The notes under the pieces were generated by a model. The model did not search any database. It was not told the DNA's origin and worked only from the letters and a program-made list of their open reading frames with translations. 8,390 nt of DNA from Candidatus Njordarchaeota archaeon. GTDB lineage: Archaea; Asgardarchaeota; Njordarchaeia; Njordarchaeales; Panguiarchaeaceae. The position numbers were made by a program, and so were the translations under genes. Below are positions 2 through 8,390 of this stretch, piece after piece. The stretch is from NCBI GenBank assembly GCA_030587585.2, contig JAUQYS020000294.1, positions 1 through 8,390 on the forward strand, in the 5' to 3' direction. The first letter of the stretch is position 1. Every line of letters begins with the position of its first letter.

Positions 2-397
2 GTGGGTTTAAGCTGGGAGGAGTTTATTAAAAAAGGAGGTTACTATATAAGACATATGTATGGACTTGAGGGCTCAAAAAAAGACTATAATTCACCTAAG
101 TGTGATACCATAATATCAAAATATTTTTGTCCATTTGCTAGAATGGATTTTTCAGATCTTAGAAAAGCCCTAAAAAAAATTAATCCTAAAATTAAAGATG
201 AGGAAATAGAAGAGATTCATAATTTATGCCTGTTAAGAAATTATCGAAAAGCCTGTGGAGTTTTTTTAAGGTCTATTGGAGGCTCAAAAATAAGGATAAA
301 TATTGTTTCGCATCCTGTTCAATATGTTAGGGCTTTATGGAAGATTATGGGTAAGAGGCGAAAGAAAAGTGAGGACGAGGCGAAAAATATATCCTAA
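2..397 (+). CDS. priL: DNA primase large subunit (PriL), C-terminal Fe-S domain; 5' end lies outside the window
   Basis: The translation contains YYIRHMYGLEGSKKDYNSPKCDTIISKYFCPF, then RKACGVF, then SHPVQYV. From memory this matches the eukaryotic/archaeal PriL/PRIM2 C-terminal pattern Y-x-IRH-x-(F/Y)G-x-EG...Y-x(3)-C...CPF...AC...HP-x-Q(F/Y), which carries three of the four Fe-S cysteines. The ORF is open to the window edge and stops with TAA at 395-397. Confidence 0.7.
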   Translation: MGLSWEEFIKKGGYYIRHMYGLEGSKKDYNSPKCDTIISKYFCPFARMDFSDLRKALKKINPKIKDEEIEEIHNLCLLRNYRKACGVFLRSIGGSKIRINIVSHPVQYVRALWKIMGKRRKKSEDEAKNIS

Positions 398-1160
398 GAT
401 TTTTCTGAGAACACATATTACTGGATATGACCCATATTTGTTGAGGGATAAAGTTGTTTCTATATTTGGTGTTGGTGGGATAGGAGCTGTTTTAGCGGAG
501 ATTCTTGTTAGAGTAGGTGTTGGAAACATAGTAATAGTGGATAAAGACATTGTCGAAGAAGAAAATCTAAATAGGTTAGGATACTATGTTGGTGATATAG
601 GAAAACCGAAAGTAGATGTCCTTAGCGAGCGGCTCTTAGCGTTTAGGAGAATTATGGGCAAAAATTTTGATGTTAAAATCGAGAAATATTACGCAAACAT
701 CTTCGATTTTCCTGAAATAGATGATATAATAAAAAGATCTGATTGCGTTCTTGCGGCTCTGGATGATATTGATGCTAGACTGGAAGTGAATAGATACGCT
801 ATAAGACATAGAAAGGTCTTAATAGACGGGGGGGCATCAACAAATGGTTTAAGAGGAAGAGTTACTGTTGTAAAACCATTTATTTGGCCATGTCTTGCAT
901 GTTACTACATGCCAGACACTATGATAGAACAGGGGGATTTATCGAATTTAACGTGTAATGTTAGTCTGCCTACGACAATGTGTATAATTGCTGCTATTCA
1001 AGCTGATCAATGCCTGAAATATCTGCTTAAAAAAAGTGGTTTGAAACCACTAACATTAATATCGTTAGAAGAGGGAATTAAAATAAGTCAAATAGAAACA
1101 ATAAAACGTAGACCAGATTGTCCATATTGCGCTGGTGAGATAGTTGACCAAGAAAATTGA
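324..1160 (+). CDS. ThiF/MoeB/UbaA-family E1-like adenylyltransferase (no rhodanese domain)
   Basis: It has a Rossmann motif VSIFGVGGIGAVLAE and the motif VDKDIVEEENLNRL (family pattern D-x-D-x-V-x(2)-s-N-L-n-R). LIDGGASTNGLRGRVTVV is followed by two CxxC pairs, WPCLACYY and RPDCPYC, which form the Zn site typical of MoeB/ThiF/archaeal E1-like enzymes. The start is uncertain: candidates are TTG 303, ATG 324 and GTG 369, and all overlap the priL 3' end. The stop is TGA at 1158-1160. Confidence 0.85.
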   Translation: MLGLYGRLWVRGERKVRTRRKIYPKIFLRTHITGYDPYLLRDKVVSIFGVGGIGAVLAEILVRVGVGNIVIVDKDIVEEENLNRLGYYVGDIGKPKVDVLSERLLAFRRIMGKNFDVKIEKYYANIFDFPEIDDIIKRSDCVLAALDDIDARLEVNRYAIRHRKVLIDGGASTNGLRGRVTVVKPFIWPCLACYYMPDTMIEQGDLSNLTCNVSLPTTMCIIAAIQADQCLKYLLKKSGLKPLTLISLEEGIKISQIETIKRRPDCPYCAGEIVDQEN

Positions 1161-4904: not shown

Positions 4905-5735
4905 ATGCCCATTAATACTGAGTATAATTCGATGAGCAATCTCGTAAATATACTATCTTACATTGAGTACATACTCTCCGAAATAGACTATCTCTATTTG
5001 CGAGTTTTATTTTTTCGCAACAACAAGCTTCTGCTAAAAAATAAAATTGATAAAAACATACTAAAACTCTACGAGCAGCTGCTCGGCACATATGAGCGAT
5101 TAATTAACTCAATAATAAAAAGAAAGCTCAACCTCCAAAAACAAATTAGATCATGCAGTACTACTATAGCCGAAAACACTGTGAAACCTCCCAAGGATAC
5201 AATCGATAAATTCGCATCGACCATAAATTCCCGCATTATATCGAATCTTCAACAAATAGAGGAAAAAATAAATATCCTAAGAAAGCATTTATCATCGCTT
5301 AATAGAGTCTATGAATATCTAACGGGACTTGATATACTTGATAATCTTGAACATAATGAACACGTACTATACATGTTAGCTTTTGATAACCAAAGAATTA
5401 TCATCACTAACATCAGGATATTCGTCCACGACGCGTCTAAAGGAACCGTCAATTTTTTCTATATTACGGATATCGAAAAGATACTATTAAAAAACTCATT
5501 ATTCTTTAAAGGTTGCATAATTAAGCTCATAGACAAAAGCAAAATAAAAATACCTCTATCTCTGCGTAAATCTAAGCATTTAAAAAGAATACTCACTAAA
5601 GTTATCAATCTAAACAAAAACTCACTGAAATATTCTCCTAAAAAAATTATCGACGAAAGATCTCTTATTCGCCCAAATATAAAAACACTAAAAACCGAAT
5701 TATTAAGATGCATTCTAGACAACCACACAAGGTAG
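4905..5735 (+). CDS. Hypothetical protein: N-terminal coiled-coil region plus a possible PH-like C-terminal domain
   Basis: It is a long ATG-initiated ORF with the same I/K/N/L-rich composition as its neighbours. The C-terminal segment EHVLYMLAFDNQRIIITNIRIFVHDASKGTVNFFYITDIEKILLK loosely resembles the bacterial/archaeal PH (bPH/GRAM-like) pattern E-x-V-l...l-x-l-T-n-x-R-i. This is a weak assignment from memory. Confidence 0.55.
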   Translation: MPINTEYNSMSNLVNILSYIEYILSEIDYLYLRVLFFRNNKLLLKNKIDKNILKLYEQLLGTYERLINSIIKRKLNLQKQIRSCSTTIAENTVKPPKDTIDKFASTINSRIISNLQQIEEKINILRKHLSSLNRVYEYLTGLDILDNLEHNEHVLYMLAFDNQRIIITNIRIFVHDASKGTVNFFYITDIEKILLKNSLFFKGCIIKLIDKSKIKIPLSLRKSKHLKRILTKVINLNKNSLKYSPKKIIDERSLIRPNIKTLKTELLRCILDNHTR

Positions 5736-5807
5736 AAAATTCATCCATTATTATGCATTTAAATCAAAGCACATCTAGAAATAACTAAAGAATTTCTAAT
5801 TGAAGAA

Positions 5808-5964
5808 TAGCGTGGGGGTTTCCGAGTTCGAAATGGGTTCGGGCGTGACCCGCACCCTATGGCCGTCCACTCAAAAGAGCGGACAGCACCGCCCTTTCGC
5901 CTGGGGTCCCCCACCAGACTACTCAGGCAGGCGTGGCGCGGCTTAGCTTTCGGCCCCCACACTA
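5808..5964 (-). other. Leader/trailer processing stem with BHB-like motif enclosing the permuted 5S rRNA
   Basis: Leader UAGUGUGGGGG (5964-5954) pairs with trailer CCCCCACGCUA (5818-5808), giving 11 bp with one G-U. Adjacent to it is a 4-bp helix CCGA (5953-5950) / UCGG (5825-5822), flanked by 3-nt unpaired AAG (5949-5947) and AAA (5821-5819) on opposite strands. Confidence 0.6.
5820..5947 (-). rRNA. 5S rRNA, circularly permuted gene (3' half, UUUU-capped helix I, then 5' half)
   Basis: The minus-strand RNA is GCUAAGCCGCGCCACGCCUGCCUGAGUAGUCUGGUGGGGGACCCCAGGCGAAAGGGCGGUGCUGUCCGCUCUUUUGAGUGGACGGCCAUAGGGUGCGGGUCACGCCCGAACCCAUUUCGAACUCGGAA (128 nt). All 5S hallmarks are present: GGCCAUAG loop A, helix II GGUGCGG/CCGCGCC, helix III GCCCGA/UCGG-AA-GC, loop C CCCAUUUCGAAC, GCUAAGCC, a loop-E-type AGUA/GAA motif, a helix IV hairpin, and helix I GUGGACGG/CUGUCCGC. 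Their order is permuted. Removing the 8-nt cap and rejoining the ends gives a 120-nt canonical 5S. Confidence 0.85.
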
Positions 5965-6001
5965 CCACAATAACCATTTATTTTTTCAACACTATCTCTG
6001 A

Positions 6002-6009
6002 TTTAAAAA
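6002..6009 (-). promoter_or_regulatory. Putative TATA box for the 5S rRNA transcript
   Basis: The minus strand reads TTTTTAAA, about 40 nt upstream of the start of the leader stem (5964). That placement would give a transcript start roughly 10-15 nt before the stem. This call rests on sequence and position only. Confidence 0.3.
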
Positions 6010-6019
6010 GTTTATTAAT

Positions 6020-6025
6020 AAAAAA
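6020..6025 (-). terminator. Putative oligo-T terminator after the tRNA-Val/tRNA-Gly pair
   Basis: A minus-strand T6 run lies 17-22 nt downstream of the tRNA-Gly 3' end. Confidence 0.3.
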
Positions 6026-6041
6026 CACTATCTAAAACAGA

Positions 6042-6127
6042 TGCGCCGGGCGGGACTCGAACCCGCGTCACCAGCTTGGGAGGCTGGCTTTAGGAGATGT
6101 ATTATCCTACCGCTAGACCACCGGCGC
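6042..6127 (-). tRNA. tRNA-Gly(CCC) with a 15-nt intron at non-canonical position 25/26; CCA not encoded
   Basis: I folded it by hand. The acceptor is GCGCCGG/CCGGCGC, the D arm is GUCU-AGCGGUA-GGAU, and the anticodon arm is CCAGC-CUCCCAA-GCUGG (anticodon CCC). The variable region is UGAC, the T arm is GCGGG-UUCGAGU-CCCGC, and the discriminator is A. It is 86 nt as encoded and 71 nt after removal of AAUACAUCUCCUAAA. Confidence 0.9.
6089..6103 (-). other. tRNA-Gly intron between the D stem and nucleotide 26
   Basis: Fifteen extra nt (AAUACAUCUCCUAAA) sit between GGAU (22-25) and G26-CCAGC. Intron CCUA pairs with exon UAGG (20-23) as a 4-bp central helix with 3-nt bulges AUA and AAG. Cutting 2 nt into each bulge restores the canonical GGAU-G-CCAGC. 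Confidence 0.75.
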
Positions 6128-6135
6128 GCTGGAAG

Positions 6136-6208
6136 TGGGCCGGGGCGGACTCGAACCGCCGACCTTCCCGTCGTAAGCGGGACGCCATAGCCACTAGGCC
6201 ACCGGCCC
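6136..6208 (-). tRNA. tRNA-Val(UAC), intron-less; CCA not encoded
   Basis: I folded it by hand. The acceptor is GGGCCGG/CCGGCCC, the D arm is GCCU-AGUGGCUA-UGGC, and nucleotide 26 is G. The anticodon arm is UCCCG-CUUACGA-CGGGA (anticodon UAC), the variable region is AGGUC, the T arm is GGCGG-UUCGAGU-CCGCC, and the discriminator is A. It is 73 nt long. Confidence 0.9.
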
Positions 6209-6227
6209 AAAAAACCAACTATATTGG

Positions 6228-6238
6228 TTTTATACTAT
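6228..6238 (-). promoter_or_regulatory. Putative TATA box for the tRNA-Val/tRNA-Gly transcript
   Basis: The minus strand reads ATAGTATAAAA, spanning about -30 to -20 relative to tRNA-Val nucleotide 1 (6208). That implies initiation at or within a few nt of the mature 5' end. Confidence 0.35.
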
Positions 6239-6363
6239 TTTCTATTTTTTGGTATCTACTCATCTCTATACTAAAGGATAATACTATTATTTACGTTTTT
6301 ATTTTTGGGTTTTTTATATCTATAATTAGTTTAAGATTTTTTAACTGTCTGGGGGATCTAGAT

Positions 6364-6552
6364 ATGACGCATGGATCGTTGGATAAGGCTGGTAAAGTTA
6401 GGAGGGCTACTCTAGAAGCCTTAAGAATGCTTGGTATAACTCCGCGGGAGCATCATACTCCTTCGCCTCGAGTAGCAAAAAGGGAGGCATATTGGAAAAG
6501 ATTTATTAAGAATTATAGAATAGGACAACCACCAAAAAGAAGGCGTTTATAA
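6364..6552 (+). CDS. rps30e: Ribosomal protein eS30 (S30e)
   Basis: The 62-aa protein is MTHGSLDKAGKVRRAT...PRVAKREAYWKRF...PPKRRRL. The N-terminal HGSL-x-KAGKVR motif and the basic tail are characteristic of eS30. The ATG at 6364 is preceded by GGGGGAT, a Shine-Dalgarno-like motif. The longer track ORF from 6097 runs through the tRNA genes and is rejected. Confidence 0.8.
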   Translation: MTHGSLDKAGKVRRATLEALRMLGITPREHHTPSPRVAKREAYWKRFIKNYRIGQPPKRRRL

Positions 6553-7937: not shown

Positions 7938-8390
7938 TTAGGGCAATTCCCTTATCATAGAAGACAGTATCTCGATAAATCTCTCCTTCGCATCTGGAGA
8001 TACTGCTACCATAGGGTACGAAGGAAAACCCGTAAGCTCTTCTATTACCGATGCGGGCAATCTATTACCCAAGTCCTGTTTATTAGCTATTAACGTAAAC
8101 CTAGAATACGGCGTTATTTTCATCAAGTATGGAAGAATTTCTTTTTGCAATCTTTCAACGTCTTCTCTAGATGAATCCGTGACAAGTACTACAAAGTCAG
8201 ATCCTTCCGTTGTCAGCATCCAAGTTCGCCAATATTCGGGCTGTCCCGCAACAGTGAACAACGTGACTTTAAATGGTTCTATTCCCTCAATTGCGAGCTC
8301 CTCAACATCTGCAAGAATAGTAGGAATATGTTTCGTCACGGTTTCACCTTTAGCAACAAGCTTTACAATAGTCGTCTTTCCGACACCGCC
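7938..8390 (-). CDS. MglA-family Ras-like small GTPase; 5' end lies outside the window
   Basis: The frame is open to the window edge and begins with the P-loop GGVGKTT upstream of the track's GTG start. G3 is TVAGQ, with Thr in place of the usual Asp as in Myxococcus MglA (TVPGQ). G4 is NKQD and G5-like is AVSP. The overall match to MglA includes VTLFTVAGQPEYW versus FHLYTVPGQVFY, and FVVLVTDSS versus GVVFVADSQ. Confidence 0.8.
   Translation of the reverse strand, partial: GGVGKTTIVKLVAKGETVTKHIPTILADVEELAIEGIEPFKVTLFTVAGQPEYWRTWMLTTEGSDFVVLVTDSSREDVERLQKEILPYLMKITPYSRFTLIANKQDLGNRLPASVIEELTGFPSYPMVAVSPDAKERFIEILSSMIRELP

Follow-up and report, generated by a model that had tools for sequence, protein, structure and literature searches.

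Introduction

Among described RNA genes, the closest counterpart of the locus analyzed here is the permuted signal recognition particle (SRP) RNA gene of Thermoproteus tenax and T. uzoniensis, in which leader and trailer of the transcript form a bulge-helix-bulge (BHB) motif that is cut by the splicing endonuclease, and the RNA is circular (Plagens et al., eLife 2015, PMC4731332). We report a circularly permuted 5S rRNA gene in a Candidatus Njordarchaeota archaeon, located on an 8,390-nt stretch of contig JAUQYS020000294.1 (assembly GCA_030587585.2), the whole of which is called the window below. The 5S rRNA elements are each encoded once on the minus strand, with the 3' part of the molecule placed ahead of the 5' part.

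Excision at a BHB is also known for archaeal rRNAs. The 16S and 23S rRNAs are excised at the BHB of their processing stems and circularized, and in Pyrococcus and Thermococcus the 23S rRNA is circular or permuted, with circular 23S rRNA present in ribosomes (PMC7758197, PMC12918454). For archaeal 5S rRNA, in contrast to these two, maturation is stated to proceed without excision and circularization (PMC12918454); low-level 5S circles of unclear meaning have been detected in Sulfolobus and Halobacterium (PMC3326292). Brown-algal mitochondria contain a linear permuted 5S rRNA (Rfam mtPerm-5S), whose ends lie at the three-way junction of the alpha/gamma domains and which involves neither BHB nor ligation (PMC4267664). 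E. coli ribosomes are functional with cp5S, a 5S rRNA in which a 4-nt connector links the native ends (PMC7283268). In the full-text literature that we searched, coverage of which is incomplete, neither archaea nor any other cellular genomes were reported to contain a permuted 5S gene.

Permuted order of the 5S rRNA gene

The Rfam 5S rRNA model RF00001 has no match at its gathering score (38 bits) anywhere in the window. With E-value reporting it yields two sub-threshold partial matches on the minus strand in reversed order, at 5975-5878 (23.4 bits), where posterior probability is high only at model positions ~52-120, and at 5870-5766 (17.7 bits), where the alignment is good only at model positions 1-51. 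Failure of RF00001 in the genomic order is the expected outcome of a permutation, and two reversed partial matches had indeed been foreseen by the initial annotation of the window, which had also proposed that all 5S elements are present on the minus strand in the wrong order, and that they would score as a full 5S rRNA once re-permuted.

A degenerate pattern derived from the 5' part retrieved 16 metagenome contigs, nine with conventional 5S genes and seven with permuted ones. The nine conventional genes, which carry a TATA box and a T-rich terminator, were the only source of a permuted covariance model, R1, in which the 5S sequences were cut in silico between A51 and G52 and the end was joined to the start; the model was built from the resulting alignment (A1) and its RNAalifold structure, which is the canonical 5S structure in permuted order, with no input from the window or its relatives. 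R1 matches the window at 5947-5820 (minus strand) over its full length (positions 1-118) with 71.9 bits and an E-value of 2.9e-13, and on conventional 5S genes it finds only half matches of 28-50 bits. In the reciprocal control, RF00001 gives 72-84 bits to all nine conventional genes, and none of the seven permuted metagenome loci reaches its threshold. Likewise, an nhmmer profile of the nine normal genes aligned the re-permuted window sequence straight across the join CTCGGAA|GCTAAGC, and in native order it aligned positions 3-52 only. These mirror tests bear out the annotated element order and the 5S identity of the re-permuted locus.

After re-permutation, helices I-V, loop A CCAUAG, loop C, loop E AGUA...GAA and the CGGAAG(Y)UAAGC junction are all in register. 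The end-to-start join, CUCGGAA followed by GCUAAGCC, matches CGGAAG(U/C)UAAGC of conventional 5S rRNA, a resemblance already pointed out from the raw sequence. The 3' and 5' halves meet at model position 51|52 with no overlap and no gap, and the gene is composed of the following parts:

5877..5947, minus strand: 3' part of the 5S rRNA (Rfam positions 52-120), comprising the helix II return strand, helix V, loop E, the helix IV hairpin and the helix I 3' strand (5886-5877); recognized by the Rfam partial alignment, the full-length R1 match and covariation in helices II, IV, V and I

5873..5876, minus strand: UUUU tetraloop capping helix I, in the place of the free ends of normal 5S rRNA; recognized in the comparative alignment A2 (see below)

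5820..5872, minus strand: 5' part of the 5S rRNA (positions 1-51), comprising the helix I 5' strand (5872-5863), loop A CCAUAG, helix II, loop B, helix III, loop C and the terminal CUCGGAA; recognized by the Rfam partial alignment, the R1 match and nhmmer

The order of the two halves thus stands as first annotated, and their ends do not, being 5947-5877 and 5872-5820 instead of 5947-5879 and 5870-5820. The eight nucleotides UCUUUUGA, previously taken for a linker, are two more helix I pairs (U-A and C-G) and the UUUU tetraloop; the predicted excised unit is therefore 128 nt long (5947-5820) and not 120 nt. Only four unpaired nucleotides remain between the halves, which leaves no space for a second promoter, and a split gene with two promoters was rejected on this separation by the tetraloop only. 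The mtPerm-5S family had no match in this region of the window in an Rfam listing that shows only the best family per clan, and the break at 51|52, in the beta domain, sets the gene outside that family. The locus stands out by its composition as well, with 65% G+C in a genome of ~33% G+C; it belongs to a sharply bounded G+C-rich block (~5800-6210) inside an AT-rich window (about 30-40% G+C).

Conservation in independent assemblies and related lineages

The 5S locus is identical in four other independent assemblies produced by different assemblers. Two of the replicate contigs, from JGI 3300005099 (L002) and Logan SRR6301444 (L003), were reached through the EF-2 protein of the window; they are identical to it over the 5S region and show 8 and 2 differences, respectively, over the whole overlap. 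The other two, from JGI Ga0164318 (L053) and ENA ERZ27227322 (L066), are 100% identical across the locus. The permuted gene was also found, with the same breakpoint, in four further lineages (L004/L051, L006/L047, L056/L058 and L059/L061), one of which, L006/L047, consists of the Candidatus Njordarchaeota B13_G17 metagenome-assembled genome (MAG) and a 151-kb metagenome contig. In all five lineages tRNA-Gly(CCC) is located directly upstream of the permuted 5S gene. An assembly chimera, which had been named at the outset as a possible pitfall, is contradicted by the replicate assemblies, and the conservation of the permutation that was to be looked for in relatives is observed.

Among species-representative genomes, the EF-2 proteins closest to that of the window belong to two MAGs labelled 'Nitrososphaerota' (88% identity), followed by Candidatus Njordarchaeota B13_G17 (86%), whereas those of Odin-, Baldr- and Thorarchaeota are 51-57% identical. 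NCBI places Njordarchaeota within the Asgard kingdom Promethearchaeati, and the host is a thermophilic Njordarchaeota-like (Asgard) archaeon. A MAG with an equally close EF-2 (88%; L005, 13250-13760) has both tRNA genes with no 5S after them, showing that the tRNA-5S linkage is not universal in the group and that the 5S gene of this genome, permuted or not, lies elsewhere. R1 had no match near EF-2 in Odin, Baldr, Thor and Hermod loci, a result that is not informative on the 5S genes of these Asgards, and a published supplement on rRNA organization in Njordarchaeota covers only 16S and 23S rRNA and no 5S.

Folding and covariation

The comparative set includes seven distinct sequences from the five lineages (window, L004, L006, L056, L058, L059 and L061), which were aligned with 30-nt flanks (alignment A2) and scored against a hand-written structure. 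Standard pairs occupy 96.2% of the cells, a share that falls to 31-47% on shifting the 3' partners by 1-3 columns. Double-sided changes are seen at 12 pairs, seven of which belong to the helix formed by leader and trailer. Within the 5S rRNA, a helix II pair that joins the 3' part to the 5' part (columns 41-126) is G-U, G-C or A-U, helix I pairs 99-110 and 100-109, which also bridge the halves, covary, helix IV pair 61-77 switches between C-G and G-C, and helix V pair 51-86 between C-G and U-A. The same helices, including the outer leader/trailer helix, are recovered by RNAalifold with no structure supplied.

The covariation between the halves indicates that both parts function in one folded molecule under selection. 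Together with the exact complementarity of the halves, which abut at 51|52, it excludes two truncated tandem copies, in agreement with the initial annotation. The Rfam-style pairing G52-C26, Y53-A25 was also tried and rejected; it is replaced by pairs of G5947 with C and of C5946 with G two positions further (columns 31-137 and 32-136), which are invariant in all seven sequences. Folded at 80 C, the 128-nt circle takes the canonical 5S shape with three helix arms, and the fold of the linear unligated form is energetically fine. Judged by these comparisons, the permuted gene is evidently under strong purifying selection in the five lineages, and we regard it as almost certain that it is real, conserved and subject to structural selection.

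A relaxed bulge-helix-bulge motif in the leader and trailer

The flanks of the gene, 5966-5948 and 5819-5806, had been described as AT-rich sequence unrelated to rRNA. They form a conserved leader/trailer helix with a BHB core, which is made up of these elements:

5954..5966, minus strand: leader strand of the outer processing helix, GGUAGUGUGGGGG; pairs with 5818-5806 (13 bp)

5950..5953, minus strand: leader CCGA, which provides the 5' side of the 4-bp BHB central helix; a mimic of the helix III strand CCGA of 5S rRNA, with UCGG 5825-5822 as its pairing partner

5947..5949, minus strand: 5' bulge AAG; predicted cut A5948/G5947, G5947 becoming 5S position 52

5822..5825, minus strand: UCGG, alternatively the 3' side of 5S helix III (mature fold) or of the central BHB helix (precursor); only one of these pairings can form at a time

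5819..5821, minus strand: 3' bulge AAA, canonical, between the central and outer helices; predicted cut A5820/A5819; invariant in all seven sequences

5806..5818, minus strand: trailer strand of the outer processing helix, CCCCCACGCUAUU; pairs with 5966-5954

6001..6009, minus strand: candidate archaeal TATA box, TTTTTAAAT, read from the sequence ~35 nt upstream of the leader helix (low confidence)

The outer helix has double compensatory changes at 7 of its 13 pairs, so that its sequence differs by lineage (AAUGGCACGGGGG/CUCCCGUGCCAUU in L004 and CCGCAUCGGGG/CCCCGAUGCGG in L006), and is present in the RNAfold minimum free energy (MFE) structure of all seven sequences. The adjoining leader segment CCGAAAG is kept while the outer helix varies; its lone variant, CCGGAGG in L056/L058, retains both the pairing and the junction G. 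Accordingly, the CCGA/UCGG helix is 100% paired in the seven sequences, the sole change (A to G in L056/L058) leaving a G-U pair. Each 4-nt strand of the core is followed by a 3-nt bulge on its 3' side, which is the 3-4-3 register of the archaeal BHB. The unconstrained MFE structure of the window precursor contains the outer helix, the 4-bp helix and the 3-nt AAA bulge, and the same combination of 4-bp helix, 3-nt bulge and outer helix is obtained for L058, L059 and L061.

The splicing endonuclease cuts after the second nucleotide of each BHB bulge. Cuts placed by this rule (5948|5947 and 5820|5819), followed by joining of CUCGGAA to GCUAAGCC, give CGGAAGCUAAGCC, the conventional 5S sequence at this place. 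A strict hBHBh' motif was considered and rejected, as no inner helix is possible between CUAAG and CGAAC. The motif has the outer helix, the central helix and both bulges and lacks the inner helix by the 5' bulge, and for this reason is of the relaxed hBH type.

The candidate TATA box would imply a leader of roughly 30 nt, at the same low confidence. A TATA-like element, TTTTTATA, is found 33 nt upstream of the leader helix in L004, and the nine conventional 5S genes have the same type of TATA box 20-35 nt (mostly 20-26) before the 5' end. On the other side of the gene, a run of T5 directly follows the trailer strand in L004 (17543-17572), L059 and L061, and a run of T4 in L006; the window, L056 and L058 have no such run. 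The T5 runs fit termination of transcription directly after the processing helix, as read from these three sequences.

Neighboring tRNA genes and other genes of the window

Two tRNA genes of the same G+C-rich block lie upstream of the permuted gene:

6042..6127, minus strand: tRNA-Gly(CCC) with a 15-nt intron at a non-canonical site; recognized by an Rfam tRNA match with a 17-nt insertion and by comparison with the L004 and L006 orthologs

6135..6208, minus strand: tRNA gene adjoining tRNA-Gly in the same block

The tRNA-Gly intron is located between the D stem and the anticodon stem (AGGAU|AAUACAUCUCCUAAA|GCC). The orthologs in L004 and L006 are intron-less, and that in L056 has a 14-nt intron at the canonical 37/38 site. 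Such differences in presence and site show a rapid turnover of introns, by gain and by loss, in this lineage. The splice sites of the window intron are accommodated by a 4-bp helix (UAGG/CCUA) whose bulges would be cut AU|A and AA|G, and are reproduced by the same rule of a cut after the second bulge nucleotide; an 8-nt loop takes the place where the inner helix would be, and one splice site lies in this loop. The same organism thus presumably cleaves relaxed BHB motifs already, one of them with the same AA|G site as the 5S precursor, and the intron indirectly supports the presence of a splicing endonuclease able to act on such motifs.

ARAGORN miscalls tRNA-Gly(CCC) as tRNA-Val(tac), and a 151-aa open reading frame (ORF) at 6097-6552 (plus strand), antisense to both tRNA genes, is spurious. 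The gene for ribosomal protein S30e at 6364-6552 is real, its 62-aa product being identical in six contigs. On the other side, the 276-aa ORF adjoining the 5S gene (4905-5735, plus strand) has no Pfam match and is conserved, apart from one or two substitutions, in every assembly of the species. Exact look-ups of the 276-aa and KH proteins of the window returned no match; the window alleles differ by a residue. In addition to S30e and this KH/Dim2-like protein, the window encodes an Arf-family small GTPase (7938-8390, minus strand) and a ThiF/E1-like protein (303-1160, plus strand), a gene content that fits an Asgard-type archaeon. Neither a splicing endonuclease gene nor an RtcB ligase gene occurs within the window.

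Proposed maturation

The above analysis suggests the following pathway. The minus-strand transcript would consist of a leader, 5S positions 52-120, the tetraloop, 5S positions 1-51 and a trailer. Leader and trailer would pair as the 13-bp helix beside the 4-bp CCGA/UCGG helix with its two 3-nt bulges, and the tRNA splicing endonuclease would cut after the second nucleotide of each bulge, at 5948|5947 and 5820|5819. An RtcB-type ligase would then close the 128-nt piece, restoring the continuity ...CUCGGAA-GCUAAGCC... between helix III and loop B, while UCGG would change its partner from the leader to the helix III strand. Since helix I is closed by the tetraloop, the product would most likely be a covalently closed circular 5S rRNA entering the ribosome as such.

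Judging from the geometry of the predicted cuts, the covariation and the precedents, maturation by BHB excision and ligation is quite likely. The explanation as a whole, a functional circularly permuted 5S gene with BHB excision and a circular 5S rRNA entering the ribosome, appears likely to us. The order of the gene, its 5S identity, its conservation, the covariation of every helix (the leader/trailer helix included) and a BHB geometry with cut sites that yield the canonical sequence are seen in the sequences themselves; EndA cleavage, ligation, the circular final form and ribosome incorporation are what we infer. Taken separately, a circular mature 5S rRNA is the likeliest end state, which we favor by a modest degree of confidence. 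More tentatively, the permuted locus may be the sole 5S gene in this group, its ribosomes holding a closed 128-nt circular 5S rRNA made by the tRNA splicing machinery.

Several points weigh against this pathway. Excision and a circle are predictions from sequence. Of the two predicted cleavage sites, the 3' one alone has the form of a textbook bulge; at the 5' site (AA|G), which is placed in a multiloop, an inner flanking helix is missing, and cleavage there would call for an endonuclease tolerant of relaxed motifs. In three of the seven sequences the MFE structure retains the outer helix and loses the 4-bp helix. The BHB central helix and 5S helix III compete for UCGG, and this competition of the leader CCGA with the CCGA of helix III implies a conformational switch after ligation. 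Finally, a low-coverage contig of the same species, L001, points to a possible conventional 5S gene in the same genome.

Alternative explanations

Contig L001 (ENA ERZ2433807, SPAdes, 69 kb, 6.7x coverage) bears on the possibility that the permuted gene is real and expressed, as a minor or specialized paralog, and that a conventional 5S gene supplies most ribosomes. Up to window position 5843, L001 shares 99.9% identity with the window. From window position 5844 onward (13474-13862 of L001) the 5S 3' part and both tRNA genes give way to a 5S 5' part of conventional type. This part matches the normal 5S of L060 at 49/52 positions and the 5' part of the window gene at 42/52; a TATA box is located ~25 nt upstream of it, along with an aIF2-gamma gene in divergent orientation. 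This conventional-type part with its TATA box speaks for a second gene, but the arrangement is seen in one contig of low coverage, which breaks at a 24-nt stretch common to the permuted gene and the conventional-type 5S of L001. Another contig of the same assembly (L064, 1-1136) also conflicts with other assemblies nearby: it departs from the window at about 6262 (6262-6363), just upstream of S30e, continuing beyond the break with a G+C-richer gene for a metallo-beta-lactamase-fold protein, whereas a Logan contig of the same strain type (L065) retains tRNA-Val there with no departure. Assembly ERZ2433807 therefore looks unreliable around the tRNA-5S cluster, and L001 is a probable k-mer chimera. 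Nor did a pattern scan of JGI metagenomes, with a pattern that would match the L001 5' part, reveal any L001-like contig or a conventional 5S gene in any sample holding a permuted one. A protein search with the 48-residue N-terminus of the L001 aIF2-gamma returned only short fragments of unrelated archaea, and three contigs from this search had unrelated contexts. Strong purifying selection on the permuted gene in five lineages also argues against an accessory role, which we consider unlikely.

A second possibility concerns the fate of the circle, which could be reopened in the helix I loop to give a linear 5S rRNA with normal ends, as is the case for the permuted tRNAs of Cyanidioschyzon merolae. 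Cytoplasmic 5S rRNAs, as far as they are known, are all linear molecules that begin and end in helix I, maturation of permuted tRNAs passes through such a circular intermediate (cited in PMC4267664), and the window loop UUUU is not an especially stable tetraloop. The structure of helix I points the other way. In the window it has 10 bp (GAGUGGACGG/CUGUCCGCUC) and the loop UUUU, which is shared by L056 and L058; L004 has UUUG instead, and L006, L059 and L061 have the hyperstable C(UUCG)G. Moreover, the helix is extended by 1-2 covarying closing pairs up to the loop. The gap of only four nucleotides, the covarying extension and C(UUCG)G in three of the seven sequences look like the result of selection for a closed hairpin, and the tetraloop, from its sequence, looks like a permanent cap rather than a processing site. 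We know of no archaeal nuclease that opens such a helix I loop in 5S rRNA. The closest analog, the Thermoproteus SRP RNA, remains circular (PMC4731332). A linear end product with normal ends is thus quite improbable.

The flanks might also be cut or trimmed with no ligation, leaving a permuted linear 5S rRNA with ends between helix III and loop B. The brown-algal mitochondrial 5S rRNA is permuted in its final form (PMC4267664), and the unligated fold, as noted above, is acceptable in energy. However, this would leave without purpose a leader/trailer helix that is conserved, covaries and has the exact spacing of a BHB, archaeal BHB products are typically ligated, for example to circular pre-16S, pre-23S and tRNA introns (PMC3326292, PMC12918454), and Thermoproteus SRP RNA that is not circularized is impaired in protein binding (PMC4731332). 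We therefore hold this outcome to be very unlikely.

That the locus is an artefact or a relic (an assembly chimera, truncated tandem copies or a decaying pseudogene), for which one could cite the failure of Rfam to find a full 5S there, is hardly tenable against four other identical independent assemblies, four further lineages with the same breakpoint and compensatory changes, halves that complement exactly, and 65% G+C in a ~33% G+C genome.

Significance

The 5S rRNA is the archaeal rRNA regarded as not matured via BHB excision and circularization (PMC12918454), and the permuted 5S rRNA would be the first such case. If the permuted gene is indeed the sole one and its product circular, a natural circular 5S rRNA would be on record for the first time, as would a DNA-level permutation of an rRNA gene in a cellular, non-organellar genome, here in a lineage that is grouped with the Asgard archaea. 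The pathway predicts a circular RNA in the central protuberance of the ribosome. There is also a practical aspect, as Rfam-based annotation will record these genomes as lacking 5S rRNA, and under the usual MAG quality standards a missing 5S lowers the quality class; the permuted model R1 finds the gene easily. Being kept in five lineages, the breakpoint provides a dated case for the permutation of an RNA gene and the recruitment of a BHB.

Comparison with known systems

The brown-algal mtPerm-5S rRNA resembles the present one in that helix I is a closed hairpin and not the meeting point of the ends. It differs in being organellar and in the site of its break, which in the present gene falls in the beta domain at 51|52, with resealing predicted. 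The E. coli cp5S, unlike the permuted 5S described here, is an engineered molecule that has its opening in loop C or D and is tethered within 23S rRNA. Archaeal 16S and 23S rRNA genes are in the normal order, any permutation of the rRNA arising after transcription, in contrast to the permuted 5S gene.

Permuted tRNA genes of Cyanidioschyzon merolae and some archaea share with the 5S locus the 3' half in first position, a BHB (of the relaxed type in 5S) in the flanks and, as predicted here, processing at this motif and ligation to a circle. The permuted tRNA circle is reopened at the acceptor-stem linker by RNase P and tRNase Z. In the permuted 5S, unlike in these tRNAs, the linker is a mere tetraloop on an extended helix I, and to our knowledge no activity opens it.

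The most extensive likeness is to the Thermoproteus SRP RNA. Both are universal structured RNAs with a gene permuted at the DNA level, and in both a short leader and trailer form a BHB, in the 5S precursor one of the relaxed type, at the junction. In both, the original ends are continuous in the gene, and cleavage and ligation, predicted in the case of 5S, restore an important internal region. The hosts are in each case thermophilic archaea with non-canonical tRNA introns, and standard searches miss either gene. The differences are that the RNA is 5S rRNA, a component of the ribosome, that the organism is Njordarchaeota-like (Asgard) and does not belong to Thermoproteales, and that cleavage, ligation and circularity are experimental findings for the Thermoproteus SRP RNA and predictions for the permuted 5S. 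The permuted 5S gene is thus a known type of system, a permuted and BHB-processed RNA gene, in an RNA for which we know of no earlier description.

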